From Bdellovibrionota bacterium (GTDB taxonomy: Bacteria; Bdellovibrionota_C; UBA2361; CAKMMH01), in NCBI GenBank assembly GCA_050952645.1, contig JBMNLI010000014.1, positions 10,300 to 74,299 on the forward strand: 64,000 nucleotides of DNA. Reading direction: 5' to 3'. This document shows positions 21,411 to 61,349 of the stretch, one piece after another (the first letter of the stretch is position 1; each line of letters starts with the position of its first letter). Below the pieces are notes generated by a model. It made no database searches, had not been told where the DNA came from, and saw only the letters and a list, made by a program, of their open reading frames with translations. A program made the translations under genes and the position numbers.

Positions 21411-22295
21411 GTGTTATTTAAGTATAAAATACGAAAATTATTAAAAACAAATAATCAAAAATTAGCTATGCAAGTATTAAAAATTATACTAGTAGCTACC
21501 ATTTTGATTATTTTGCTAATTTTAGCTAATGGTTTATTTATAAATTTTCTTAATAGTGAATCGTCCGTAAAAAATAATATTTTATCGGCACTAGATAAAG
21601 ATAATTTAAAATTAAGTCAGGCTAATGCTAATAACGCATTATCAAACGTAAATTATGCTTTAATAACTCAAAAAAATATTTTTGGTAATTTATCTAATAA
21701 CCAAGAAGATAAAGATGTAGAAAGCAGTAGACCTAGCTCTGATATTCCTTTAGCTCTTATCGGAACGGTCATTACAACGGGTTCTGCCCCTTATGCAATA
21801 ATTGAAAATACTAAAGAAAACTTACAAGATGCTTTTTCTACTGGTGATAGCGTATTCGAGTTAGCTACTCTCGTTGCCATATACAAAAACAAAGTAGAAA
21901 TAAGAAGAAATGGAATAATAGAAACTCTTGAGATAGATGCTTTCGACTCAGATGGACAAGATGATGAACAGTCGGGAAATATTCTTTATCTAGATGCAAA
22001 AGAAGTGCAAGCTGCACTTTCTAATCTTCCAGAGGTGATGACGCACGCTCGTGCTATTCCATATTGGCAAGAGGGGCAAGCGGTGGGAGTTAGACTATTT
22101 TCAATAAAGCAAGGTAGTATTTTTGAGAAAGTAGGTTTGAAAAATGGAGATATATTAAAAAATATAAATGGCAAACAACTTGGAGATTTTTCAAAAGCTA
22201 TGGGACTTTTTGAAGAACTTAAAAATGAGACTTCATTAAGTATCAATCTTGAAAGAAATAAAGAAGAAATGAATTTACATTACAAAATAAGGTAA
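21411..22295 (+). CDS. gspC: T2SS protein C with PDZ domain
   Basis: N-terminal TM, LALIGTV...YAIIE HR domain, ARAIPY...IKQGSIFEKVGLKNGDIL PDZ; precedes gspD. Confidence 0.9.
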   Translation: MLFKYKIRKLLKTNNQKLAMQVLKIILVATILIILLILANGLFINFLNSESSVKNNILSALDKDNLKLSQANANNALSNVNYALITQKNIFGNLSNNQEDKDVESSRPSSDIPLALIGTVITTGSAPYAIIENTKENLQDAFSTGDSVFELATLVAIYKNKVEIRRNGIIETLEIDAFDSDGQDDEQSGNILYLDAKEVQAALSNLPEVMTHARAIPYWQEGQAVGVRLFSIKQGSIFEKVGLKNGDILKNINGKQLGDFSKAMGLFEELKNETSLSINLERNKEEMNLHYKIR

Positions 22296-22303
22296 GAAAC
22301 TTT

Positions 22304-25078
22304 ATGAAAACTATATTAAAAAGTAAATTATTAAGTAAAACATTATTATCAAGCTTATCAAGCTTATTGTTATGCTTGTTATTATGTTTAAGTTATTCAT
22401 CTTTATCATTCGCTCAAAGCTCGCAAGCAGATAGTGATGGAAATAGTGATATAATAAGCCTTAGAGCTCAAGATAATCAAAATAATGATGATTTAGCTAA
22501 AGATGCATCGACTGAAATAAACGTAAAAAATGCGGATATAGCAGCAATCGTAAAAGTTTTTAGTAAGAAAACGAAAAGAAATTATATCCTTGATGAAAAT
22601 GTAAGAGGTAAAGTTTCTATATATCTGCCAGGAAAAGTAACGTCTGATGAGGCACTTAGGATATTAGAATCTGTTCTTGCACTTAAAGGTTTTACCTCGG
22701 TTCCAGTAAGTAAAAACTTATGGAAGATTATCCCTGCTAGAGATGCTAAAGGAGCTACTATCCCGACTAAATTAAGTAGCGACATAGATAATGCAACGGC
22801 AGCGGTAGTCACGAGACTAATAAATTTAAAGTACGTAAATGCCGAAGATATGCAACAAATAATTTCTCAAATGATATCTCCAAACGGTATAGTTAACGCT
22901 TATACGGGAACGAACGCTTTAATAATTATCGACTCGGAGGATAACGTTGCAAGGTTAATAGATATTATAAACACTTTAGACGTTCCTTTTACTAGTCAAG
23001 AAATGACTATAGTGCCAATTAAATATGCAGAGGCTACAGATTTAGCAGAGAAATTAAAAGAAATTTTAACTGATGAGAAAAACAATGCGACCATTAACAA
23101 TCTTCGCAACCCAAGAATATTAGGGCAAAATAGGCTTCCACAAGTACCACAACAAGGAGGGGGTGCTAGTGCATCTAGCGGCAAAACTATTGCTTCTAGA
23201 GCAAAAGAACCAAAGATTATAGCTGATGAAAGAACTAACTCTATTATTTTACTTGCCGATGATGAAACGACCGCAAGAATTAAAGCGCTAATAGACCAGT
23301 TAGATAGTCAAGTTGATTTGTCGGGAAATAGATATTACGTTTATCGTTGCCAGCATGCTAATGCTGAGGATTTAGCTGAAGTGTTATCGGGCTTAAGTTC
23401 TAATGCAAAGAGTAGCTCTGAGTCTGCAAATCCAGGGCTACAAAAAACTAGCGATACTAAAACTAGAAACAGAACTCAAGAAAGACTTGCAACGCAAACT
23501 AGAACGCTTGGCACCTCTAGACTAACTCCTAAAAGTAGCGATAGTTTACAATCTGCAACGCTAGGGGAAGACGTTTCAATTACTGCCGATGCTTCTACTA
23601 ACTCTTTAATTATAAGTGCTAGCAAGGCAGATTATAGAAAGATTTTAAATTTACTTTCCGAGCTCGATGTAAAAAGGCGTCAAGTGCTAGTTGAAGCTAT
23701 GCTTATGGAGGTTAATTTAGATGATACTAATAATATGGGGACGGAATGGATGACATCTAATGGCGGAAAAGATGGTGGTTTTTTTGCTAGCAATACTCAA
23801 GGAGGTTTAAATACTTTATTTAGCAACCCAGATCAACTTTCTGGATTTTCTATGGCTGCGGTAAGTGCTGGAAATTTAACTATAGGAAATATAAACGTTC
23901 CTACTCAAAGCGTTTTACTTCAAGCTGCAGCGAAAAGCTCCATAGCTAATGTGCTTAGTGCGCCAAATATTTTAACTGCCGATAACGAAGAAGCGGAGAT
24001 AGTAGTAGGTCAAAACGTTCCGATGCTTGCTAGCACGTCTACATCGTCAGATAATTTAAACAATACTTTTAACCAAATAGATAGACAGGATGTTGGTATT
24101 ACACTTCGTATCACTCCACGAATTAGCGAAGGAGATTTCGTAACGCTAAAAGTATTTACCGAAGTTTCAAACATTATCGATAAGGATCCTAGTTTAGGTT
24201 TTACAACTTCCGTTAAAACTAGTGAAACTACAGTTATAGCAAAAGACAACCAGATGATCGTAACGGGCGGTTTAATATCGGATGATAATACTACTACTGA
24301 AAACGGAGTTCCTTTTCTTAAGGATATTCCAATTCTTGGTCACGTTTTTAAAAATACTGTAAACTCAGTAACGAAGAAGAATCTTTTAATTTTTATAACG
24401 CCAAGAATTATAAGAGATCAGTTCGATGCTAGAAGCTCAACTATAGAAGAAAAAGAAAAATTAGAAGATGTTATTGCTTATAATAATATAACTCCTAATA
24501 GAGAGGGCGTGCTAAATCACCCAAGGATAGATGAGGTCGCTACGAGTGAAAAGTACGAGGGGGCAGTGCCTAGTATAATTACAGCACCTAGAGATAATGA
24601 TAGCACTCTTTTAAAAAGTAGTGGTGAAATTTTAAGATTAAAAGCTTCTCCAAAGCTTCCATCTTTGAAACTTCCAGTTCAAAAAACTAGTAGCGTAAAT
24701 GTTAATAGCAATAATAACAATAAAAATGAACTTCCTAAAGCATCGCTAAATATAGGTAAGATTACTAATAAGAATTTAAGTTCAGATAATCAAAAATATA
24801 TAGTGATGAAAGTTTTATCAAATGGGAAAACGTCGCCTTTTAAAACTTCAAAAAACTTATTTGGCGTAACTATGCCAAGCAATGCTAATGTTAATAGTTT
24901 CTTTGTTCCAGGAGGGCGATATGTGTATAATAATAATGGGGAAAAAATAGAACTAGTTGCGCAGGGAGTTTTTAACAATAAAGATAAAGCGGAATATATC
25001 TACGAGGAGTTAAAGCTCGCATCTTGGAACGAATTAGGTTCTCAAGATTTAATGCGTTCTTGGAGAAAGGCTAATTAA
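22304..25078 (+). CDS. gspD: T2SS secretin
   Basis: N0-N3 domains, QVLVEA, NVLSAPNILTADNEEAEIVVG, RQDVGITLRITP, VPFLKDIPILG; long C-terminal extension. Confidence 0.95.
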   Translation: MKTILKSKLLSKTLLSSLSSLLLCLLLCLSYSSLSFAQSSQADSDGNSDIISLRAQDNQNNDDLAKDASTEINVKNADIAAIVKVFSKKTKRNYILDENVRGKVSIYLPGKVTSDEALRILESVLALKGFTSVPVSKNLWKIIPARDAKGATIPTKLSSDIDNATAAVVTRLINLKYVNAEDMQQIISQMISPNGIVNAYTGTNALIIIDSEDNVARLIDIINTLDVPFTSQEMTIVPIKYAEATDLAEKLKEILTDEKNNATINNLRNPRILGQNRLPQVPQQGGGASASSGKTIASRAKEPKIIADERTNSIILLADDETTARIKALIDQLDSQVDLSGNRYYVYRCQHANAEDLAEVLSGLSSNAKSSSESANPGLQKTSDTKTRNRTQERLATQTRTLGTSRLTPKSSDSLQSATLGEDVSITADASTNSLIISASKADYRKILNLLSELDVKRRQVLVEAMLMEVNLDDTNNMGTEWMTSNGGKDGGFFASNTQGGLNTLFSNPDQLSGFSMAAVSAGNLTIGNINVPTQSVLLQAAAKSSIANVLSAPNILTADNEEAEIVVGQNVPMLASTSTSSDNLNNTFNQIDRQDVGITLRITPRISEGDFVTLKVFTEVSNIIDKDPSLGFTTSVKTSETTVIAKDNQMIVTGGLISDDNTTTENGVPFLKDIPILGHVFKNTVNSVTKKNLLIFITPRIIRDQFDARSSTIEEKEKLEDVIAYNNITPNREGVLNHPRIDEVATSEKYEGAVPSIITAPRDNDSTLLKSSGEILRLKASPKLPSLKLPVQKTSSVNVNSNNNNKNELPKASLNIGKITNKNLSSDNQKYIVMKVLSNGKTSPFKTSKNLFGVTMPSNANVNSFFVPGGRYVYNNNGEKIELVAQGVFNNKDKAEYIYEELKLASWNELGSQDLMRSWRKAN

Positions 25079-25230
25079 ATTTAACATTTAAATTTAAAGG
25101 GTTTTTTTATGTTTTAAGTGAGTTGTAAAAAGTTGTGTAAATAAGTTTATAAAATAAGTTTATAAAAAAAGTTTATAAAAAAAGTGTGATTATAAAAGGA
25201 ATTATAAAGTTATAAAAGGAATTATAAAGA

Positions 25231-26844
25231 ATGAGTAGTGAAGCAAGAAAATTAAATCATAACATAGGTGATTTAAAAGCTTTAGCAAGGTATTTAGGAG
25301 TGCTATATTACGATAAACTTTCTGACCCTATTTTGCCTCAAAAAATTGTAAAGGGTGATTTTAAAAGAATCACAGGCTCTTGGGCAAAAAATTATTTAGC
25401 TATTCCTATTGCAGAGTCGGAAAATGAAATCATAGTCGCTACGTCTGAACCAGATAATATAAACCTTATCGAGCAACTACAAATATGTTTTGGAAAAGCC
25501 GTAAAAATAATTGCAGCTCCAGAAGAAGAAGTTTTAAAAGCCATTAACTCGGTTAAAACGAGACTTATGAACGATCGCTCGAGTGATTTAAAGAGCGATG
25601 ATGATGACGATGGTAACGAGTTTAGCCATGAGTTAAAGATAGACGTTACGGATGCAGAGGATGATGATGCTCCGATTATACGATACGTAAATGCAATGAT
25701 TTTTAAAGCTAACACTGAACGAGCTTCAGATATTCACGTTGAGCCTTATGAAAACGAGGTGAAAGTTAGATTTAGAATAGACGGTGTGCTTTACGATATT
25801 GCTAGTGAAGATAAAATGTTCCAAGCTGGTATTGCTAGTAGAATAAAAATTATGGCAGGTCTTAATATTGCAGAAAAAAGATTGCCACAAGATGGGAGAA
25901 TAGGTCTTAAAATTGCTGGTAAAGATGTAGATATTCGTGTATCTACGATTCCTACCTCATTTGGTGAAAGAATAGTTCTTAGAATTCTCGACCAAACATC
26001 GACCGTGCTAGATTTAGAGCAGCTTGGGATTACTGGGAAAAATCTTGCAACGGTTCAAAATTTAATTACTAAGCCTAATGGTATAATTTTAGTTACTGGG
26101 CCTACGGGTTCTGGTAAGTCTACAACCTTATATTCCTGCTTGTCGTATATAAATAAGCCTGATTTAAATATTTTAACGGTTGAAGATCCTGTCGAGTACC
26201 AACTCCCAGGGATTGGGCAAATGCAAGTAAATCCGAAGATAGGATTCACTTTTGCTTCGGGGCTTCGTGCAATTTTACGTCAAGACCCAGACGTCGTGAT
26301 GGTTGGTGAGATTCGTGATGCAGAAACTGCCGATATTGCTATTCAAGCATCGCTTACGGGACACTTAGTTTTATCTACTCTTCACACGAACGACTCTGCT
26401 GGAGCTATTGCAAGGCTAATAGATATGGGAGTGGAGCCTTTCTTAGTATCTTCAAGTTTGCTTGCTATTATGGCTCAGCGTCTTATAAGACGCCTTTGCC
26501 CAGTATGTAAGGAAGAGTATGAGCTTTCAGATGAAGAGTTAAGAAATTTAGGTATTGCGCCTCATAAATTAAAATCGAGAAAAGCTTATAGGGAAGGGAC
26601 AAAGCCTTGCAGTTTTTGTCAAAATACTAGATATAAAGGGCGAAGTGGCATCCATGAATTGTTGTTAATAGATGAGGATGTGAGAAGTTTAATTACTCAA
26701 AGAATGGACTCTACGACTATAAAGAGAGCAGCTTTTAAGAAAGGTTTTAAAACATTAAGAATGGACGGCGCCACGAAAGTTTTAGCTGGTATAACCTCAG
26801 TTCAAGAAGTATTATTAGTAACTCATGAGAATGAAAATTTATAA
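25231..26844 (+). CDS. gspE: T2SS assembly ATPase
   Basis: ASDIHVEP, RLPQDG, GPTGSGKS, LRQDPDVVMVGEIRD, CPVC/CSFC Zn site. Confidence 0.96.
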   Translation: MSSEARKLNHNIGDLKALARYLGVLYYDKLSDPILPQKIVKGDFKRITGSWAKNYLAIPIAESENEIIVATSEPDNINLIEQLQICFGKAVKIIAAPEEEVLKAINSVKTRLMNDRSSDLKSDDDDDGNEFSHELKIDVTDAEDDDAPIIRYVNAMIFKANTERASDIHVEPYENEVKVRFRIDGVLYDIASEDKMFQAGIASRIKIMAGLNIAEKRLPQDGRIGLKIAGKDVDIRVSTIPTSFGERIVLRILDQTSTVLDLEQLGITGKNLATVQNLITKPNGIILVTGPTGSGKSTTLYSCLSYINKPDLNILTVEDPVEYQLPGIGQMQVNPKIGFTFASGLRAILRQDPDVVMVGEIRDAETADIAIQASLTGHLVLSTLHTNDSAGAIARLIDMGVEPFLVSSSLLAIMAQRLIRRLCPVCKEEYELSDEELRNLGIAPHKLKSRKAYREGTKPCSFCQNTRYKGRSGIHELLLIDEDVRSLITQRMDSTTIKRAAFKKGFKTLRMDGATKVLAGITSVQEVLLVTHENENL

Positions 26845-26916
26845 TAAGAGTTTATAATAAGAGTTTATAATTAAAGTTTATAATTATTAAAGTTTTTGTA
26901 ATAAGGTTAATTAAAG

Positions 26917-28143
26917 ATGCCTATTTTTGAATATAATGCGATATCATCAACTACTGGAAGAAAGATAAAAGGCAATATAGATGCTGAGAATATAAGAATT
27001 GCTAGGCAAAAATTAAAATCTCAAGGTGTTTACGTTACGGATATTCGTGAGGGCTTAGAAAAAAATGCTACCACGAAAAAAGGCGAAATAAATTTTTTAA
27101 AAAATAGAGTTTCTCTTAAAGATTTATCTATTATTACATCGCAGCTTACTACTCTTATCGTTGCGGGGCTTCCTCTAGTTAATGCGCTTCAAGCGCTTGC
27201 TGAGCAAACGGAGTCGAGAAATTTAAGAAGAATTCTAACCGATGTTAGAGAGAGTGTAGAAGAGGGGAACGCCTTTCATAAGTCGCTTGCAAATTTTCCA
27301 AAAGCTTTTCCGAAGTTATACGTAAATATGATTGAAGCTGGGGAGGCTTCAGGAAAATTAGATTCTACTTTAGAAAATTTATCAAAGTATTTAGAAGAGC
27401 AACTCGCTTTAAGAAGACAAGTAATTTCATCTCTATTTTATCCTATATTGATGCTAGTTTTCTGCTTGTTAGTAGTCGTTGGGCTTCTTGCTTTTGTAGT
27501 TCCAAGTATAGTAGAAATATTTGAAAAGCAAGGCGGAACGCTCCCTCTTCCTACGAGAATAGTAGTAGGTATATCGGATATTATTATAAATTATTGGTGG
27601 GTATTTATTTTAGCGATTATAGGAATGGTAGTAGGTTTTAAAAAATATATACAAACGGAGCAAGGAAAATTTAATATAGATTTAATGCTTATAAGGCTTC
27701 CTTTTTTTGGAAAATTGTATACGAAAGTTGCAACGGCACGTGTTGCAAGCACTATCGGAACTCTGTTCGCAGGAGGTGTGCCACTACTTACTTGTCTAGA
27801 TATCGGAAAAAATATAGTAAGCAATGTCCATTTTAGAACATCTCTAGAGCAAGCGAGAGATGGCGTAGAAAAAGGAAAGAGTCTTTCTAGTGAGCTTGGG
27901 AAATCTGGGCTTTTCCCACCACTTTTATCGCATATGATAGCTGTAGGTGAAAAAAGCGGACAATTAGAACAGATGTTAGCACGTGCCGCTAAAGCCTACG
28001 AAGATGAGGTAAAAAATGCCCTTTCTGCCATTACATCAATTATCGAACCTTTAATGATCATATGTTTAGGCGGAATAGTTTTTGCAATAGTGATATCAAT
28101 TTTAATGCCTATGGTTGGAATAATCGATTTGATTCAAGGTTAG
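26917..28143 (+). CDS. gspF: T2SS inner-membrane platform protein
   Basis: Two T2SSF domains (AGEASGKLD...YP; VGEKSGQLE...EP). Confidence 0.95.
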   Translation: MPIFEYNAISSTTGRKIKGNIDAENIRIARQKLKSQGVYVTDIREGLEKNATTKKGEINFLKNRVSLKDLSIITSQLTTLIVAGLPLVNALQALAEQTESRNLRRILTDVRESVEEGNAFHKSLANFPKAFPKLYVNMIEAGEASGKLDSTLENLSKYLEEQLALRRQVISSLFYPILMLVFCLLVVVGLLAFVVPSIVEIFEKQGGTLPLPTRIVVGISDIIINYWWVFILAIIGMVVGFKKYIQTEQGKFNIDLMLIRLPFFGKLYTKVATARVASTIGTLFAGGVPLLTCLDIGKNIVSNVHFRTSLEQARDGVEKGKSLSSELGKSGLFPPLLSHMIAVGEKSGQLEQMLARAAKAYEDEVKNALSAITSIIEPLMIICLGGIVFAIVISILMPMVGIIDLIQG

Positions 28144-51547: not shown

Positions 51548-52954
51548 ATGTTAAAAGAAAGAAGACAACTAGTAGAAGTTTTTTTTGTTATATTCGATCT
51601 GTTTTTTATAGCGGTAGCTTGGGTTCTAGCTTATTACATAAGATTTTATTCAGGGATAGTAATCGTCGATAAGGGGATACCTCCATTTTCACAATATTTT
51701 TGGATCTTGATAGTCGTTTTGCCCATATGGTTTTTAGCTTATAAGCTAGGCGGGCTTTACGTTCCACTAAGAGCGACGGCTCGCAAATCGTATGAAAGTT
51801 TTTTACTTATTAGGGCCAATAGTATCGCAATACTAGTTCTTATCTCTTACACGTATTTAGTGCAAGAAAGAACTTTAGAGGTTTCAAGGTTAGTGCTTTT
51901 TTATTTTGCAGTCTTATCTACACTATTTGGGATATTAGGAAGAAGCGTTTTAAGGCGTTTTTTAAGGGATATAAGAAGAAAGGGTTATAACTTAAAGTTT
52001 ATGCTTATAATAGGTGGAGGAAAGGTAGCAAAGGATGTTGCAGAAAGAATTAGAAAAAGAAAAGACTACGGCATTCAACTAATAGGGTGTTTAAATAAAA
52101 CCGGTGAAAGTAGTAAAGAGATAGATCTCCCAGTTTTAGGGAAATATGAAGATTTAAGAGATATATTAGATAAAAAGCAAATAGATATGGTAGTAGTAGC
52201 TCTTCCATTAGAAGACAATCAAATGCTTCCCGTGGTGATGAAAGTTTTAAGCGATTCGGTAGTCGATGTTAAAATAGTTCCAGATGTTTACCAATTTATA
52301 AGTGTAGGAGGGTTTATCCAAGATTTCGATGGTCTCCCAGTTTTAGGTCTCCAAGAGTCTACTATCGATGGAATCAATTATTGGATAAAAAGAGTGTTCG
52401 ATATTGTAGTATCATTGCTTCTTATAATTCTTTTAGCACCACTTATGCTTTTAATAGCAATCCTTGTAAAATTAACGTCTAGGGGATCTTGTATTTATAA
52501 GCAAGAGAGAATGAGTTTAGATGGCTCATCGTTTCAGATGTTAAAGTTTAGAACGATGAAACAAGATGCTGAAAAATCGGGGCCAGGGTGGACGGTAAAA
52601 AATGATGAAAGAGTCACGGGCTTAGGAAAATTTTTACGTGCTTATAGTCTAGATGAGCTTCCGCAGCTTTTTAATGTTCTAAAGGGTGATATGTCGCTAG
52701 TAGGACCTCGCCCTGAAAGACCAGTGTATATTCAAGAGTTTAGAAAAAAAATTTTCTCATTATATGATAAGACATAAAGTAAAATCTGGCATAACGGGTT
52801 ATGCACAAATAAAGGGGTGGCGAGGGGGGACACTTCGATAGATAAGCGTATAGAGTGCGACTTATATTATATAGAAAACTGGTCGCTTTTCTTTGATTTA
52901 AAAATACTCTTTTTAACTATCTTTAGTGTATTTAAAAAGACGAACGCTTACTAG
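51548..52954 (+). CDS. wcaJ: Undecaprenyl-phosphate glucose phosphotransferase (two 3' frameshifts)
   Basis: KRVFD, KFRTM, SLDELPQL, SLVGPRPE; shifted frames continue HKVKSGITGYAQ and DLYYIENWS to TAG at 52954. Confidence 0.9.
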
Positions 52955-52995
52955 AGGCTTTGTTAATATTCTTAAATTTTATATTTTCAAGTTTT

Positions 52996-53827
52996 ATGAT
53001 AATCAAAAAAATAAAAAATTTAAATTTAGAAGAGATTGCTGAAAGTGGGCAAATTTTTAGAATGAATAAAAATAAAGATAATTCTTTTAATATTATTTCT
53101 AAAGATAAATTTTTAAAAGTTAAAGAAGCTAAGAGTGGTGAGTTTCATTTTTATTGCGAAAGGAAAGAGTTTGAAAATTATTGGAAGAACTTTTTTGATT
53201 TAGAAACTGATTATTCAAAAATTTTAAGTTTGATAGATAAGAATGATAAATTTTTATACGAAGCTAGCAAGGCTGGAAGTGGCATAAGGATATTAAGGCA
53301 AGACCTTTTTGAGACGATTATTAGTTTTATAATTTCTCAGCAAAATAATATTCCTAAGATAAAAAATACCATAGAAAAGCTTTGTAAAAAATTTGGTGAA
53401 TTAAAAGAAGATAAAGAAACGGGATGCAAGTTTTTCGCATTTCCTAAAGCTAAAGATTTGCGTAATATAAAAGACCTTCAAGGCTTATCTTTTAGGATAT
53501 CGAGATAAATATATAAGTGCGTTTTGTCAAAGCGTGTGTAATAAAACTTTTTTATTAGAAGAGTTAGAAAATAAGAGCAATGAAGAAGAGTGTTTAGAAA
53601 AGCTTTTAAGTATTTATGGGGTAGGTAAGAAAGTTGCTAATTGCGTTTTACTTTTTTCGCTTCATAAATTAAATGCTTTTCCTGTAGATACGTGGATAAA
53701 AAAAGTTTTAGAAACAAAGTATGGTAATAATTTTCCTTATAAGAGATACGACGGCTACCTAGGCGTCATTCAGCAGTACATGTTTTTTTACGCAAAGAAA
53801 AAAGAAAAAGAAGAAAAAAATTCTTAA
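52996..53827 (+). CDS. ogg: 8-oxoguanine DNA glycosylase (frameshift at T4 53490-53493)
   Basis: ESGQIFR, GIRILRQD, ISQQNNIPKI; removing one T restores LGYR and joins GVGKKVANC...FPVDTW...QQYMF. Confidence 0.9.
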
Positions 53828-53945
53828 ACTTTTCACGAACATTTTTTTTTATATAATCGATATCTTCTTTAGTGATAAAAATTAGATAAGGCTTTTTAAG
53901 CTTTATTTTAAAAAACTTTTTATATTATTAAAGGAGAAACTAGCG

Positions 53946-54279
53946 ATGAGTATAAATATAAGCCAATTAAAAAATAATTTAAACCAAGTTCAAATGGAAA
54001 ACTATGAGAAAGCAGGCTCTAATGTGGCTGCGTCTTTTGGCAATGCAGAAGATGATTTAATGCAAATTTACACAGCTACAGATGATGCTACTATAAAAAG
54101 TATTGCGAGTAGATTAGGTATAAACGTTGAGAAAAAAAGCGGGTACTGAACTTTTAGAATCAACACAAACCGTAGCAAAATTAAAATATGAAAAAGCATC
54201 TAGGACTTATTCTATGTTTATAAAAATTATGGAAAATGCGCATCAGATGCTTATGAATATTATAAACAAGATAGGTTAA
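53946..54279 (+). CDS. About 110 aa helical protein with T3SS needle/pilin-like C-terminus (frameshift at A7 54132-54138)
   Basis: AAGGAG RBS; removing one A gives ...KYEKASRTYSMFIKIMENAHQMLMNIINKIG*. Confidence 0.65.
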
Positions 54280-54319
54280 TTTTTTTTTATACTTTTAATT
54301 TAATTATTTGGAGGAGTAT

Positions 54320-55328
54320 ATGACTACTATTTCTGAATTAAGACAAGCTTATAGAAAGGAAAACTTAGATGCTACATCTTTAAAAGACTCTATGGCAGAT
54401 ATGATGAATGAGCTTGTAAAAACTAATAAACAAGGTTCAAATATTGGAAATGAAGAAATGGGCGAAGATTTCGTCTATACTTCTCTTGTTTATGATCAAT
54501 TAAAAAAGCAAGACGCTTCATTAGCTGAAACTTTTAAAAGTAAAATTGCCACAGTCTTTAATAGGCTTAATGATAAATCGAGAAGAGAATCTCAACCTTT
54601 GTTTAAGGCTACAAATAGAGTGCTTAGAACGATGGTAAGAGCTGGTGATTTAACGAAAAAAATAAATAAAGTGATGAAGCGTATAGCTTTAGGAAAATCT
54701 CAATTAGATAAAAAACCTAATAGATTGAGAAGAGCGCCAATAGTTATCGATAATAGCGAAACTAAAAATAATGTTGAAGAGATTATCGATAGGATTGGTA
54801 AAAACAGAGTCGCATCTAACGCTACATTAGAGGCTATAGTTGCAAGAAATGCTCGTAAGACTATATCGGTTGAGGCATGGGAGCGAAAAAAAGACTTTCT
54901 AGATGGACTAAAAGCAGCTCCAATAGAAGAGAAAAAAGTAGGTAGCGTAGCATCTGTTAGCGATGTAGAAGAAAAGAAGGTAAATGTATTTAAAGGCACT
55001 ACTAACGATATGGTCTTTGACCCAAAATCGGAATATGGAAAGCCAGTTTTTATTTTACCTCATTTATATTCTAATGTAGAAAAAGTTGCCGATATAAAAA
55101 TGGAAACTACAGATGGTGTGCCATTAGGAGATTTTACGTATGGTGGCACTGAAGAGGGAATTCCTGATAGCAACTATGCTAGAAAATTTTTATTATTTCT
55201 CTCATGAGATGACGCTTCCAAGTAAGATAAATATTTTAATGCGTTTCGAAGGAACTGATGAGTGGTTTTATCAAGCTTTCGATACTAGAGAAATGCACAC
55301 GATAAGATATAGAAGCAAAAGCTTATAA
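54320..55328 (+). CDS. Hypothetical protein, about 335 aa (frameshift near 55183-55191)
   Basis: GGAGGAG RBS before ATG 54320; removing one base joins the 55140-55328 frame. Confidence 0.7.
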
Positions 55329-55447
55329 TATTGGTAATATTTCGCCTTTAGTCATCTTTTCCTTATATATCGGGCTATATATATCGATTATATATATATC
55401 GATGACTTACAAGAAAGAGAAAGAAAAAGAAAGAAAGAGAAAGAAAG

Positions 55448-55502
55448 AAAAGGGACGATGTCTTTTAAAAAGTTGATTTTTAAATAAGCATCGTCCTTTT
55501 TT
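55448..55502 (+). terminator. Intrinsic, possibly bidirectional, terminator
   Basis: AAAGGGACGATG...CATCGTCCTTTT with an inner A/T stem and a T-tract. Confidence 0.75.
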
Positions 55503-55726
55503 ATTGTCTTTTTTATTGTCTTTTTTATTGTCCTTATTATTGCCTTTGTTTTTAATTTTTTTTGCATTATTAGCTTATAACCATTTGGAATTATTGAATA
55601 TTCTAATTAGACAAAAGGTAAATAAATAGTAATATAAGCGATAATAGGTGCTTATTTTTAAAAGACAATGTTCTAAAATATCTTAAAATATTTAAAAAAA
55701 ATATTATTTTTTTTTAAATTTTAAAC

Positions 55727-55753
55727 TAATGTTTAAAGTTTTCATGCCGATAG
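55727..55753 (+). promoter_or_regulatory. Putative sigma-28 (FliA) promoter of flagellin
   Basis: TAAT-N15-GCCGATAG versus consensus TAAA-N15-GCCGATAA; about 100 nt upstream of the flagellin start. Confidence 0.6.
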
Positions 55754-55851
55754 TCTATTCGTAGGTTGTTAATAGGAAAGTTTTATAATTTAAATAAAAT
55801 TTTAGATTTTTTTAAATTTTTTTAAATTTTTGTGTGTGCGGTAAATAGAAT

Positions 55852-57774
55852 TTGGCGATTAAAATAAGGACAGACATATTTGCAATGAATGCAATTAGAG
55901 GCTTATCTAAAAGCTCAAAAGAGCTTTCAGATATCTACTCTAAGTTATCATCTGGAATCAGAATAAATAAAGCCTCCGATGATGCTGCGGGGCTTGCTAT
56001 CGCTTCTTCATTAAATACCGATTGCAGAGTTTTTAATCAGGGACTTAAAAACGTAAATGATGGTATCTCCTTTATACAAATAGCTAGTAATGCTATCTCT
56101 TCACTAAAAGACATCACTATAAGACGCCAAGAACTCGCCGAGCAATCTGCTAATGGTGTTTATTCAGATAAACAAAGAGAAAGTTTAAATGAAGAGTTTA
56201 TAGCATTAGCTAACGAATACCAAAGGATTATAGCTACTACCGAATTTAATGGCTTAAATTTATTAAATGGTAGTATGGAAAAATTATCATTGCAATTAGG
56301 ATATTCCGAGCTAGATTTAGATTTTGGTAAAACGCTAAAAGAACTAAAGACGCTAGGCGTTTACAAAGTGGGCTATTCGGCAGAAAGGTCTTTTACACAA
56401 ACCGTTGCATCTACTAACGGCGGATTTTCGTCAGATATTGCACTCGGTGATGTTAATGGCGATGGCTTTTTAGATATGATAGTTTCAGATTATGGAACTA
56501 AGGAACAGTGTACTAATGGTGGGTATTCTAATACGGTTTCAGTATCTATAGGAAAGGGCGACGGAACTTTTGAAGATGCAGTTTTTTATAGCTTAGGAGT
56601 AGAAAGCAGACCGCACAATGTTTCTTTAGCAGATATAAATAGCGATGGGCATTTAGATATTTTATCAGATATCGCACAAGGCGACGTAGTATACCTTATG
56701 ACTAATAATGGAGATGGCACATTTAATACTAGCGAGACTTTCGACCCAGAGCTAATAGTGTTAAACTCGGTAGCTTCAGGTGATATAAATGGTGATGGCA
56801 ATGTGGATATTATAACTGCAGGAAGAGGCGCATCTGGAAATGGAGTTTTCGTAAATTTAGGTGATGGTGCTGGAAATTTTAGCGCCGCGACGACTGGGCA
56901 AAGCACGCCATCTAGCGTATTTAATTTAAGAGTTGCAGATATAAATGGCGATGGAAATGATGATGTAGTATCTGCAAATAAGGCAAACAATAGCTTTTCA
57001 GTTTTTACATCGAATGGAACGGGGCTAGAGGCTGGAGATGTGTATAATGTCGGAGCTACAGTTTACGATGTGGCAGTAGGCGATTTAGATGGAGATGGAA
57101 AAAGTGATATAGCGGTAGCATCTGGTAATGGCTTACATATTTATAAGCAAAATGAAGATGGAACTTTTTCAAATGTTAAAACTTTTAATGAAGGCTCGAG
57201 AGTTACGGCAGTAGAGATAGACGATATAGATAATGATGGAAGCTTAGATGTCGTGTCTGCACAAAGTTTAGATAATACGGTTACGCTATTTATAAATGAG
57301 GGCGACCTAAAATTTAAAAAACAGACGGCGTATGCAGGAAGCGGAGCTTCTGCAATGGCAGTAGGTGATATAAATAATGATGATGCGTTAGATGTTGCAA
57401 CGGCAAACTCTAGGGCAGCAACGGCAGAGGCGTTGACCGCAGGCGAGGTTCATATGGACATTTTAACTCAGCGCAATGCGCTAAACTCTCTAGATGAGTT
57501 AAAAACGATATTAGAAAAACTATCGAGCTTCCAAGGACAGTTAGGGGCTGTTCAATCGAGATTAGAAACTGCATCTAATGTTATGCAAATATCGAAAGAA
57601 AATAGTAGCGCCGCTGCATCGATTATTTCAGATGTAGATGTTGCAGATGCTAGCTCAAGAATGGTAAGACAAAATATACTTCAAGAGGTTTCTGCATCGA
57701 TCATATCTCATGCGAATTTACAATCAAATATCGCTTTGCAGTTGCTAGATTTTTCTAATGAAACAAAAAAATGA
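55852..57774 (+). CDS. Flagellin with seven FG-GAP/VCBS repeats in the variable region
   Basis: N-terminal KLSSGIRINKASDDAAGLAI...TEFNG; C-terminal LGAVQSRLE...ISDVDVA...ANLQSNIALQLL; seven DxxxDG/D loops between; TTG start. Confidence 0.93.
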   Translation: MAIKIRTDIFAMNAIRGLSKSSKELSDIYSKLSSGIRINKASDDAAGLAIASSLNTDCRVFNQGLKNVNDGISFIQIASNAISSLKDITIRRQELAEQSANGVYSDKQRESLNEEFIALANEYQRIIATTEFNGLNLLNGSMEKLSLQLGYSELDLDFGKTLKELKTLGVYKVGYSAERSFTQTVASTNGGFSSDIALGDVNGDGFLDMIVSDYGTKEQCTNGGYSNTVSVSIGKGDGTFEDAVFYSLGVESRPHNVSLADINSDGHLDILSDIAQGDVVYLMTNNGDGTFNTSETFDPELIVLNSVASGDINGDGNVDIITAGRGASGNGVFVNLGDGAGNFSAATTGQSTPSSVFNLRVADINGDGNDDVVSANKANNSFSVFTSNGTGLEAGDVYNVGATVYDVAVGDLDGDGKSDIAVASGNGLHIYKQNEDGTFSNVKTFNEGSRVTAVEIDDIDNDGSLDVVSAQSLDNTVTLFINEGDLKFKKQTAYAGSGASAMAVGDINNDDALDVATANSRAATAEALTAGEVHMDILTQRNALNSLDELKTILEKLSSFQGQLGAVQSRLETASNVMQISKENSSAAASIISDVDVADASSRMVRQNILQEVSASIISHANLQSNIALQLLDFSNETKK

Positions 57775-58553: not shown

Positions 58554-61349
58554 ATGTTCGCAGGAAATAATTTAGCAGGAAATAGTGCTGTTGAAACGAA
58601 TTTCGCTCTAAGGAATGATTTTGACGGATTTAAAAAGAGAAATGGAATGATCGTAAAGTTCGACATTTCTAAAATTAAAAATGCCGTGCTAAAAGCATTC
58701 GAGGAAGTCCAATATAAAAATCAAATAAATTTTTCTAAAGATGCCCCTGAGGTTATAGCGATGAAAGTTTTAGAAGAATTAAATAATGAAAATGGGATAT
58801 ATTACGTTCATGAAAATGAGAATAAAAAAAGAATCCCTCGCATTGAAGATGTTCAAGATTTAGTAGAGGTGGTTTTAGCTAAAGAGGGGTATTTAGAGGT
58901 TTTAACGTCGTATAAGACTTATAGAAAGCAAAGAGAGATAGCAAGAAATAGAATAAAGGTGCTAAAAGATAGCTCCTCTCAAGATATTGACGTAACCGAC
59001 GCAACACTTTTGTTAGTAGATTCCCATTCGTCAAATATTACTCGTCCATGGGATAGAAAAAGGCTAGTAAATCAGCTTATAGAGGAAACGAACGTAGGCT
59101 CAGAGGTGGCAAATTCGATAGCTAAAGCCGTAGAGAATCAAATTATTACTGCTAAATTTTCTTCTGTAAGCTCCTCTTTAATAAGAGAGTTAGTAAATAA
59201 TGAGTTAGCAATGAGAGGCTACCACGACCAACTTAGAGACTTATCTTCTTATGCATTAAGTAAAAAGTTTATCGAGCAGTTGATATTTAACAAATCGGTA
59301 GAAAATAGCAATGTTGGGTCTAACAACCCAGAGGCTGTAAACTTAGGCATTGCAGAGTTAGTGTTAAAACAATGGGCATTAGACTCTATGTTTTCCCCCG
59401 AGGTAAAAAGGGCGCACGACACCGGGGCTATCCACTTACACGACTTAGGATATCCGCATAGAGTTTATTGTTCATCTCACAGTATAGAGTATATTAAAAA
59501 ATATGGATTAAAAGGCTTGTTAAATTTACACACTGAGTCTAGTCCTGCTAAGAGTGCTTCAGTTTTAACGGGACATTTAAACACGTTCTTAGCTTCGATG
59601 CAAGCTAACTATGCTGGTGCTTTAGGTATCGCTTATATAAATATTCTTTACGCTCCATTATTAGAGGGAAGAGATAAAAAGTATTATAAACAAACTGCTC
59701 AAGAGCTAGTTTTCAACGGTTCTCAAAATGCGTTTTCAAGGGGCGGTCAAACGCTATTTTTAGACTTTAATGTTCATACTGGCATTCCTGAGTATATGAA
59801 AAAAGTTCCTGCTATTGGAGCTGGTGGAAAGTATATGTTGATGCTTTCAGATGGCGCAAAGGTATTCTTAAAAGAAGAGTTAAGAGAAGATAAAGATGCT
59901 GGTGGAAATAGGTTAATGGATCTTTATTATGAAGATGAAACGGGCGAAAGAAGATTAGTTTTAAGAGAACTTGCAGACCAACAAAAAGGCATGATTTACG
60001 ATGAGACCGTTATAGAGGAGCTTAAAAAACGAGGAGAAAAGATAGTAACTTATGGAGATTATGAAAAAGAGGCTAAAGAATTTGCTTTCGCTTTATTAGA
60101 AGTGTTTGGTGAAGGTGATAGCAACGGAAAGATATTCGAGTTTCCAAAATGTGATTTCCATGTAAGCGAAGAAACGTTTACAGACCCTGAGCAATATGAA
60201 GTGTTTTTATATGCTTGTGAGATAGCAAGTAAAAATGGTTCAGTTTACTTTATTTTCGATAGAGACGCAGTGACGCTTTCAGCTTGTTGTAGATTAAGAA
60301 CGACGATAACCGACAATAGAATGCTTTTTCATCCTGAATCTATGAGATTTTGTGGCTTCCAAAATATTACTATAAATATTCCTCAAGCTGCTTACAGAGC
60401 TGCAAAGAAGGGAGAAGCAACCTTAGAGGGTTTATATAAAGAGGTTGATGCGATGATGGAACTCTGTGCAAAAGCTCATTTAGAAAAGAAGATGAAAATA
60501 AAAGATATGATGAGTGAGCAAGGTGGCCCTTTATACCAAGTAGGCAAGCTTGCTTGCGATGGCAAACCTTATATAGAGCTCGACAAATGCACTTATATTA
60601 TAGGTATTATCGGCGTTAATGATGCAGTTAAATTCTTAACTGGCAAGGAGCTTCATGAGTCTGATGAGGCTATGGATTTTGGATTAAAACTCTTAGCTAA
60701 GATGTATTTAAAGAGTAAAGAGTTAGGAGAAAGACATAATTTAAAATTCAGCATCGAAGAAACGCCTGCAGAGAGTGCTTCGAGACGTTTAGCGATGACC
60801 GATTTAGTGTATTTTAATAAGGAAGCTAAATCGACGGTAAAGGGAGATTGTGAAGACGTTGCATATTACACGAACTCTATTCATATCGCTCCTGAGGCGC
60901 CAGTTTCATTAGTAGAGCGTATTAGAAAGCAGAGCATGTATCATAGTATGATTGAGTCAGGGGCTATTATTCATGCGTTTGTTGGTGAAGAAAAGCCATC
61001 ACCTGAGGCGATTAGAAAGTTAATAAAGGATACATTTTTTAAGACACAAGCGGCTCAATTGACCATCTCGCCAGAGTTTACTGATTGTTTAGACTGTCAT
61101 AAAATGACTAGAGGGTTAAATGAAAAATGTCCAAAATGTGGCTCAACAAACGTTGTAGGAGAAACTAGAGTAGTTGGATATTTTTCTAAGATACAAAACT
61201 GGAACAAGTCGAAACGCTTTGGAGAGTTAATAGATAGGCAAAGAGGCTCTTATTCTATAGAGAAAGCGGACGATGTCGTTTTGCGTGATGATATAGACTG
61301 TAGTTCTTGTAAGGGAGAAGAGATATCTTCTAGTGCTTTCTTACAATAA
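58554..61349 (+). CDS. nrdD: Anaerobic (class III) ribonucleoside-triphosphate reductase
   Basis: ATP cone (KKRNG..VKFD..KI), IHLHDL, SACCRL, ETPAES, YYTNS, CLDC/CPKC, glycyl-radical RVVGY. Confidence 0.96.
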   Translation: MFAGNNLAGNSAVETNFALRNDFDGFKKRNGMIVKFDISKIKNAVLKAFEEVQYKNQINFSKDAPEVIAMKVLEELNNENGIYYVHENENKKRIPRIEDVQDLVEVVLAKEGYLEVLTSYKTYRKQREIARNRIKVLKDSSSQDIDVTDATLLLVDSHSSNITRPWDRKRLVNQLIEETNVGSEVANSIAKAVENQIITAKFSSVSSSLIRELVNNELAMRGYHDQLRDLSSYALSKKFIEQLIFNKSVENSNVGSNNPEAVNLGIAELVLKQWALDSMFSPEVKRAHDTGAIHLHDLGYPHRVYCSSHSIEYIKKYGLKGLLNLHTESSPAKSASVLTGHLNTFLASMQANYAGALGIAYINILYAPLLEGRDKKYYKQTAQELVFNGSQNAFSRGGQTLFLDFNVHTGIPEYMKKVPAIGAGGKYMLMLSDGAKVFLKEELREDKDAGGNRLMDLYYEDETGERRLVLRELADQQKGMIYDETVIEELKKRGEKIVTYGDYEKEAKEFAFALLEVFGEGDSNGKIFEFPKCDFHVSEETFTDPEQYEVFLYACEIASKNGSVYFIFDRDAVTLSACCRLRTTITDNRMLFHPESMRFCGFQNITINIPQAAYRAAKKGEATLEGLYKEVDAMMELCAKAHLEKKMKIKDMMSEQGGPLYQVGKLACDGKPYIELDKCTYIIGIIGVNDAVKFLTGKELHESDEAMDFGLKLLAKMYLKSKELGERHNLKFSIEETPAESASRRLAMTDLVYFNKEAKSTVKGDCEDVAYYTNSIHIAPEAPVSLVERIRKQSMYHSMIESGAIIHAFVGEEKPSPEAIRKLIKDTFFKTQAAQLTISPEFTDCLDCHKMTRGLNEKCPKCGSTNVVGETRVVGYFSKIQNWNKSKRFGELIDRQRGSYSIEKADDVVLRDDIDCSSCKGEEISSSAFLQ

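Follow-up and report, generated by a model that had tools for sequence, protein, structure and literature searches.

The window analysed here is a stretch of 64,000 nucleotides from the genome of a Bdellovibrionota bacterium (G000, 1.95 Mb and 93.75% complete; window at G000:C14:10300-74299), in which three consecutive genes were followed up: a small gene (gene 1), the gene directly behind it (gene 2) and a flagellin gene. [quoted passage not shown]

Judging from the sequences of its family, gene 1 likely encodes a needle-like subunit of a non-flagellar type III machine. When a profile of 51 family rows was compared with 177,635 PDB sequences, the best match was a peptide of a needle-chaperone complex (7y6c_F, E 0.0015) and the second best was YscF (2p58_B, E 0.021). 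These top matches bear out the claim of an earlier reading made from the letters of the window (the sequence-only reading) that the small protein is needle-like and probably type III exported. In the Atlas, a short member of the family (from G041) scored 0.93 to clusters in which 24-32% of the members carry PF09392, with 200 of 256 features in common. The structure model of gene 1 shows a helical hairpin whose C-terminal helix is long, plus an extra short helix (predicted local distance difference test, pLDDT, 73); assembly into a hollow needle would be the expected property of an SctF-like protein. Fold searches with this model were less specific: Foldseek gave no match at E<=0.001, with generic helical matches and PrgI at rank 27, and a second search reached its best Z of 8.0 with unrelated helical proteins, a needle chain being among the ties at Z 7.2. 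The family was matched in 81 of the 91 genomes of the order, mostly once, and gene 1 often adjoins prfA-prmC, fabF or murA. A word-indexed protein search returned only 22 close relatives, and NCBIfam gave nothing coherent on the 51 rows. Two gene-1 paralogues stand in tandem in one genome (G027, L124:5538-6235), one of them with a long loop insert.

The source genome carries non-flagellar export machinery in addition to a flagellar set. Besides FlhA, two further FHIPEP genes scored best to SctV, and the genome holds FliF and two SctJ, three FliP/SctR, and FliI together with one SctN-like ATPase; the pattern of three gates recurs across the 41 genomes searched. Both non-flagellar gates have their own SctJ, SctR, SctS and SctT-like genes, and homologues of SctR, S, T, U, V, J, N and Q were all present besides the flagellar ones, most of them below the NCBIfam equivalog cut-offs. 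The lone SctU-like gene detected encodes 202 amino acids (aa), and a 97-aa protein resembles SctI (PF17001, E 0.029). The operon of the shorter gate runs in the order FliA-like sigma gene, sctJ, sctQ-like gene, a small gene here called A4, and sctV at the end (21 loci of the order), and the sigma gene heads it in all 28 loci (L043:8172-8885, L128-L147, L164-L170). This shorter SctV, of 608 aa (L043:3937-5760), aligned over its full length with NCBIfam PRK05910 (584 positions; 257 bits, below the cut-off), which we take to be a chlamydial FlhA-like protein.

The longer sctV lies inside a tight adherence (Tad) operon, where it precedes a kinase-like gene, in the source genome and in six of the six other loci (L171-L176). 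In the source genome this operon, at G000:C12:108500-119200 (L040:8546-19171), consists of flp, cpaB, tadA, tadB, tadC, sctV and an 800-aa kinase-like gene. Searching plasmids with the long SctV yielded no more than distant matches, at ~35-37% identity over the longer alignments. A second T3SS cluster was also seen at L046:115-7533 (G000:C15), with an FHA-domain protein, sctJ, sctO/Q/R/S/T-like genes and the 202-aa SctU-like gene; it also holds a small gene and a TPR chaperone gene resembling SctX/SctY.

The pore was sought in several ways. Secretins (PF00263) numbered at most two genes per genome in 41 of 41 genomes, and the 12 that were classified, two from the source genome and ten from five genomes of sister orders, all turned out to be GspD or PilQ. 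In five genomes, TIGR02516 for SctC recovered only GspD/PilQ genes, all below the cut-off, and PF13629 for Tad-type secretins had no match in five genomes. A dedicated SctC secretin was therefore not found by sequence, in genomes that are incomplete and where a very divergent pore could be overlooked. The window itself contains the type II secretion genes gspC, D, E and F (21411-28143), and the secretin there is GspD.

In sister orders, related genes are found within the non-flagellar operon. In seven of seven sister-order loci a gene matched by the gene-1 profile lies between A4 and the short sctV (gap 314-582 bp); the profile of these in-operon genes gave a weak match to needle proteins in the PDB, and one of the sister-order genes reached 15.3 bits to PF09392, for a curated cut-off of 29.4. 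In the order of the window the same slot is empty in 21 of 21 loci, the gap being -4 to 120 bp in 20 of them and 283 bp in one. From this position we infer that gene 1 is the in-operon gene of the sister orders, moved out; this would be a case of a needle gene leaving its operon and dropping below family cut-offs.

Gene 1 and the short-sctV operon also share a promoter-like box, RGMAACTT-N13-NCGAWT. It was present before gene 1 in 29 of 36 regions, whereas 200 shuffles gave 0.8 matches on average and never more than 5. A matrix built from the 36 upstream regions of gene 1 gave scores of at least 14 bits upstream of 18 of the 20 A4 genes held out (2 of 192 neighbouring controls) and of at least 11.9 before 16 of the 21 operon sigma genes of the order (5 of 192 controls). 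The FliA-like sigma factor of the operon would presumably read this box. In the order its own gene usually has the box as well, suggesting possible autoregulation.

Gene 2 had been called an orphan, which did not hold: 75 of the 78 genomes of the class have members of its family, as a rule more than one. The gene-1 locus was inspected in 50 genomes of the order, with flanks of ~1.3-1.5 kb, and gene 2 stands directly behind gene 1 in 13 of them, representing six families. When 36 gene-2 rows were placed in a tree, the 11 rows located behind gene 1 fell within one clade of 13 (support 100/99), and the pairing therefore probably arose once. The model of gene 2 comprises an all-helical N-terminal domain and an immunoglobulin (Ig)-like beta-sandwich C-terminal domain (pLDDT 83.5). 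No Pfam family was matched at E<=0.01 by six members, no convincing PDB sequence match and no Atlas match were obtained for gene 2, and the fold search, in which the N domain was not queried separately, gave no clear match, the best Z being 6.3, to Ig/FnIII/expansin-like sandwiches. Among 25 rows that are not behind gene 1, nine have the same box as gene 1. As a proxy for Sec signals, which is not a signal-peptide predictor, a 10-residue Kyte-Doolittle window of at least 2.0 within the first 35 aa was used; such a hydrophobic stretch occurred in 0 of 51 rows of the gene-1 family and 2 of 36 rows of the gene-2 family, and the maximum for the flagellin was 1.27, in support of the earlier statement that the three proteins lack Sec signals. 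Because of this N-terminus, the operon position and the shared box, the likeliest reading of gene 2 is that of a type III substrate, at about even odds. Some gene-2 paralogues form a clade of their own with sigma-54-like boxes (L066, L077, L079 and others), and three of these genes adjoin motA-like genes. The gene-2 family may serve both flagellar and non-flagellar systems.

Several observations weigh against the preferred reading. PF09392 itself was matched by 3 of the 51 gene-1 members at E<=0.1 (best 5.7e-4), and PF06429, a flagellar rod/hook C-terminal family, was matched by seven (best 0.0028). The turn PxxP between the helices, presumably a feature of SctF needles, was not seen in the consensus alignment of the gene-1 family, nor was a conserved proline pair. 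A few of the 81 genome matches are weak and represent the A4 paralogue instead of gene 1 (for example in G037). Gene 1 resembles the in-operon genes over the last 41 columns alone (HHalign 96.7%), and these genes are matched just as well by the A4 family; because A4 matches equally and only the last helix is covered, the orthology of gene 1 and the in-operon gene rests on position. As for the box, its pattern and thresholds were set after inspecting the sequences, and the related genomes are not independent. In the source genome the gene-1 box is degenerate (score 5.7, rank 485 of 1724 genes; A4 ranks third), the operon sigma gene is without box, and a genome-wide scan was not enriched (5 genes and 3 in shuffled sequence at >=14 bits), defining no regulon. 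The upstream half of the box has decayed in three of the four genomes of the window's family, and the box was not found before seven of seven sister-order sigma genes. In 37 of the 50 genomes the gene-1 locus has no gene 2, and 12 of the 25 gene-2 rows not behind gene 1 have a sigma-54-like box instead, by a loose pattern without control. The source genome has a single non-flagellar ATPase for two gates, and therefore the two gene sets may be one machine. Finally, no tip, translocon or needle chaperone was noticed among the genes scanned, no genome-wide search for tip or translocon being made.

In a different arrangement, gene 1 is type III exported and is not the main needle: the needle or rod would consist of A4, and gene 1 would make up an element of the rod in the periplasm, or else a filament that extends it in the manner of EspA, Bsp22 or the Hrp pilus. 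There are three small proteins of the axial type (A4, gene 1 and the 97-aa SctI-like protein), A4 and gene 1 have the C-terminal helix in common (HHalign 93%), gene 1 carries a variable helical loop insert and is itself long for a needle subunit, and no secretin was found. We consider this arrangement unlikely, though worth keeping in view; the A4 profile did not reach a PDB needle protein at E<=10, whereas the gene-1 and sister-order profiles each did. Far less probable is that the small helical protein of gene 1 is unrelated to needles and that its amphipathic C-terminal helix is like theirs by chance, genes 1 and 2 then being unconnected to secretion. The scores of the family below curated cut-offs and the restriction of the matched region to one helix would fit a chance resemblance, but needle proteins ranked first in two separate searches (PDB profile and Atlas), and the sister-order operon position and the shared box are independent of any likeness to known needles.

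The locus itself was corrected. An extra base of the assembly at 54141, in gene 1, is absent in one of four short-read runs, the sole run with a spanning contig, and another at 55187, in gene 2, is absent in the short-read contigs of three of the four runs, the fourth being without cover. The open reading frames of 67 and 295 aa in the sequence-only reading are assembly artefacts. From the read check, the true lengths are ~110 aa for gene 1 and ~335 aa for gene 2; in relatives both are intact single frames, of 102-120 and 334-342 aa. Near-identical DNA is present in digester, landfill and bioreactor metagenomes. The features of the locus in the window are as follows.

52960..53827, + strand: 8-oxoguanine glycosylase (ogg), upstream neighbour, split by an assembly error at 53490.
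53836..53862, + strand: promoter-like box upstream of gene 1, degenerate with respect to the order-wide consensus, its downstream half intact and its upstream half decayed.
53946..54279, + strand: gene 1, SctF-like (needle-type) helical hairpin, split by the extra base.
54320..55328, + strand: gene 2, predicted helical N domain and Ig-like C domain, split by the extra base.
55447..55510, + strand: intrinsic-terminator-like hairpin and U tail in the gap between gene 2 and the flagellin, from folding against shuffles.
55726..55753, + strand: FliA (sigma-28)-type promoter-like box before the flagellin.
55852..57774, + strand: flagellin, 640 aa, from matches to Flagellin_N, Flagellin_C and FG-GAP.
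58554..61349, + strand: anaerobic ribonucleotide reductase NrdD, downstream neighbour.

The order ogg, gene 1, gene 2, flagellin and nrdD confirmed that three co-oriented genes, all on the + strand, lie between housekeeping genes. The neighbouring sugar transferase and ogg (window 51548-53827) are likewise split, by extra bases at 52752, 52824 and 53490 relative to the short-read contigs, and other "broken" genes of this genome need to be checked against reads in the light of these two.

The three genes are not one module, and the flagellin is a separately controlled neighbour of the pair and not its partner, because its linkage breaks and because genomes without a flagellum keep gene 1. Of the 11 genomes in which downstream DNA is available, 3 have the flagellin behind the gene pair (G000, G001 and G003, all of the window's family). 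G002 belongs to this family too and has its propeller flagellin and the pair on different contigs; family f2 has the gene pair, and its flagellin matches are cores only; and gene 1 and gene 2 occur at none of eight propeller-flagellin loci of other families. Genomes G021, G023 and G034 keep gene 1 and both SctV genes, without a flagellin match and without an FlhA-scoring gate. The proposed linkage of all three genes held in part, for genes 1 and 2; for the flagellin, the unlinking in relatives that the sequence-only reading had named as its own test is what was found. Its terminator was there: the hairpin at 55447-55502, followed by U residues, has a z of -5.9, and none of 200 shuffles was as good, although a consensus scanner for sigma-70 promoters and terminators, whose output was at chance level, overlooked it. 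A box of the type that we take as the FliA (sigma-28) consensus precedes the flagellin, with a 16-nt spacer in the source genome, and it is closer to that consensus in G001 and G003.

The flagellin matched Flagellin_N with 113.8 bits and Flagellin_C with 58 bits, both above cut-offs, and carries seven FG-GAP repeats at ~aa 200-514 between these two domains, a predicted beta-propeller, as the name propeller flagellin had implied. A weak match to TcdB_toxin_midN overlaps an FG-GAP repeat and was not taken as evidence of a toxin. The flagellin gene is one of four in the source genome, whose flagellum genes include FlhA, FlhB, FliF, FliI, FliD, FliM, FliA, MotA and a short MotB-like gene. In the suggested survey of motility and chemotaxis genes, motA and the short motB-like gene are present, and CheW and methyl-accepting chemotaxis proteins (MCP) were not found in this genome at its 93.75% completeness. 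At L050:8591-9587 (G000:C15), motA is followed by genes for a membrane protein of 144 aa and for a MotB-like protein of 191 aa, in the latter of which only the plug motif was detected. FG-GAP propeller flagellins are multicopy across much of the order (G008, G011, G012, G013 and others), some in tandem arrays. The propeller flagellin is most likely a minor subunit of a separate flagellum, and it may be adhesive.

The earlier proposal that one flagellar-type apparatus exports all three proteins into a single adhesive appendage would draw on their adjacency and common orientation in G000, G001 and G003, the lack of Sec-like N-termini, the failure to find CheW or MCP and the short motB (a flagellum that may not serve chemotactic swimming), and the gene-2 member that precedes a flagellin in G011 or those that adjoin motA-like genes, but it is largely refuted by distribution and the least credible of the explanations, since the flagellin has a terminator and a promoter of another type in front of it, linkage is broken within the family and absent in the other families examined, gene 1 persists in three of three genomes without flagellin or FlhA, and the needle-like gene lies in the non-flagellar operon in sister orders, evidence pointing to a non-flagellar apparatus for gene 1.

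Under the reading of gene 1 as a displaced needle-like gene, the following mechanism can be proposed. The FliA-like sigma factor encoded beside sctJ would co-activate its own gene, A4 (before sctV) and gene 1. The shorter SctV gate would pass the gene-1 product in unfolded form, and polymerisation by way of the C-terminal helix would yield a hollow rod or needle. Without SctC, this structure would either stop short in the periplasm or reach through the outer membrane, using a borrowed secretin (PilQ or GspD) or a pore that escaped recognition. The product of gene 2 would leave by the same gate afterwards, with its beta-sandwich domain binding surfaces. The propeller flagellin would be a minor, FliA-dependent subunit of the filament that displays an adhesive domain. 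By analogy with Myxococcus, the system may be used against prey bacteria.

Comparison with known systems was made from the parts of the cited papers that were considered. Abby and Rocha (2012, PMC3459982) describe Myxococcales T3SS loci in which both the secretin and SctF are missing, and postulate an ancestor that had SctF but lacked the secretin. The needle-less system, T3SS*, acts together with the Tad-like Kil system (Herrou et al., PMC12075869; reviews PMC12428579 and PMC10849154). In the parts of these two reviews considered, the joint presence of Tad and a secretin-less T3SS is called restricted to one myxobacterial suborder; it has also been proposed for Bradymonas (PMC11509652), and no such system appears for Bdellovibrionota bins in the part of PMC10469934 considered. 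Flagellins with accessory outer domains include a WD40-repeat cluster, #55 (Fields et al., 2024, PMC11532411); FG-GAP is not mentioned in the part of PMC6248924 considered. A literature search, which covered few subscription papers and excluded supplements, found no account of the system of this lineage or of its FG-GAP flagellins. This is apparently an undescribed variant of the non-flagellar T3SS across a bacterial class.

Like the long and short loci of the Myxococcales T3SS*, as far as described in those parts, the present genomes combine two non-flagellar gene sets per genome with no dedicated secretin and with Tad co-occurrence, and no tip or translocon was recognisable, here among the genes scanned without a genome-wide search. 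Unlike T3SS*, which is described as lacking SctF, a needle-like gene is conserved; one sctV lies inside the Tad operon, and no Tad-type secretin was found; and the genes are scattered, with a FliA-like sigma gene in the operon. The likeness is one of gene content. With the SctF needles (YscF, PrgI, MxiH, EscF; PF09392), gene 1 shares, as far as its model goes, a small helical hairpin, and further the lack of a Sec-like signal and a matching C-terminal helix; it differs in the length of its family members (76-130 aa) with their variable loop insert, in the missing PxxP and in scores below cut-offs, and, in the order of the window, in being encoded away from the apparatus genes. Detached needle genes of this kind could be overlooked in systems now called needle-less. 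The flagellin, like the accessory-domain flagellins considered in PMC11532411, places a folded domain (here a predicted propeller) between conserved flagellin ends; its repeats are of the FG-GAP type and the genes are multicopy across the order, and these flagellins may be distinct from cluster #55.

A wider picture can be put forward tentatively, as a possibility short of our expectation: an uncultured, Bdellovibrionota-related class would have a working needle-bearing, secretin-less T3SS in the state expected of the ancestor from which all injectisomes descend, with a sigma-28-like regulon of its own, a second gate in the Tad operon and a function in prey contact, and gene 2 would found a substrate family. 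The physical location of sctV within the Tad operon bears on how both machines may be coupled during predation. An SctF-like gene is present and SctC was not found, as in the ancestral T3SS inferred in PMC3459982; the likeness is one of gene content only, and a basal survivor and a secondary loss of SctC both stand as readings of the lineage. In the part of PMC3459982 considered, a stage with a needle and no secretin, between flagellum and injectisome, is proposed, and the only descendants named for it are needle-less. The lineage of the window has that gene content in most of the genomes examined, and the needle-without-secretin stage may therefore be open to study.

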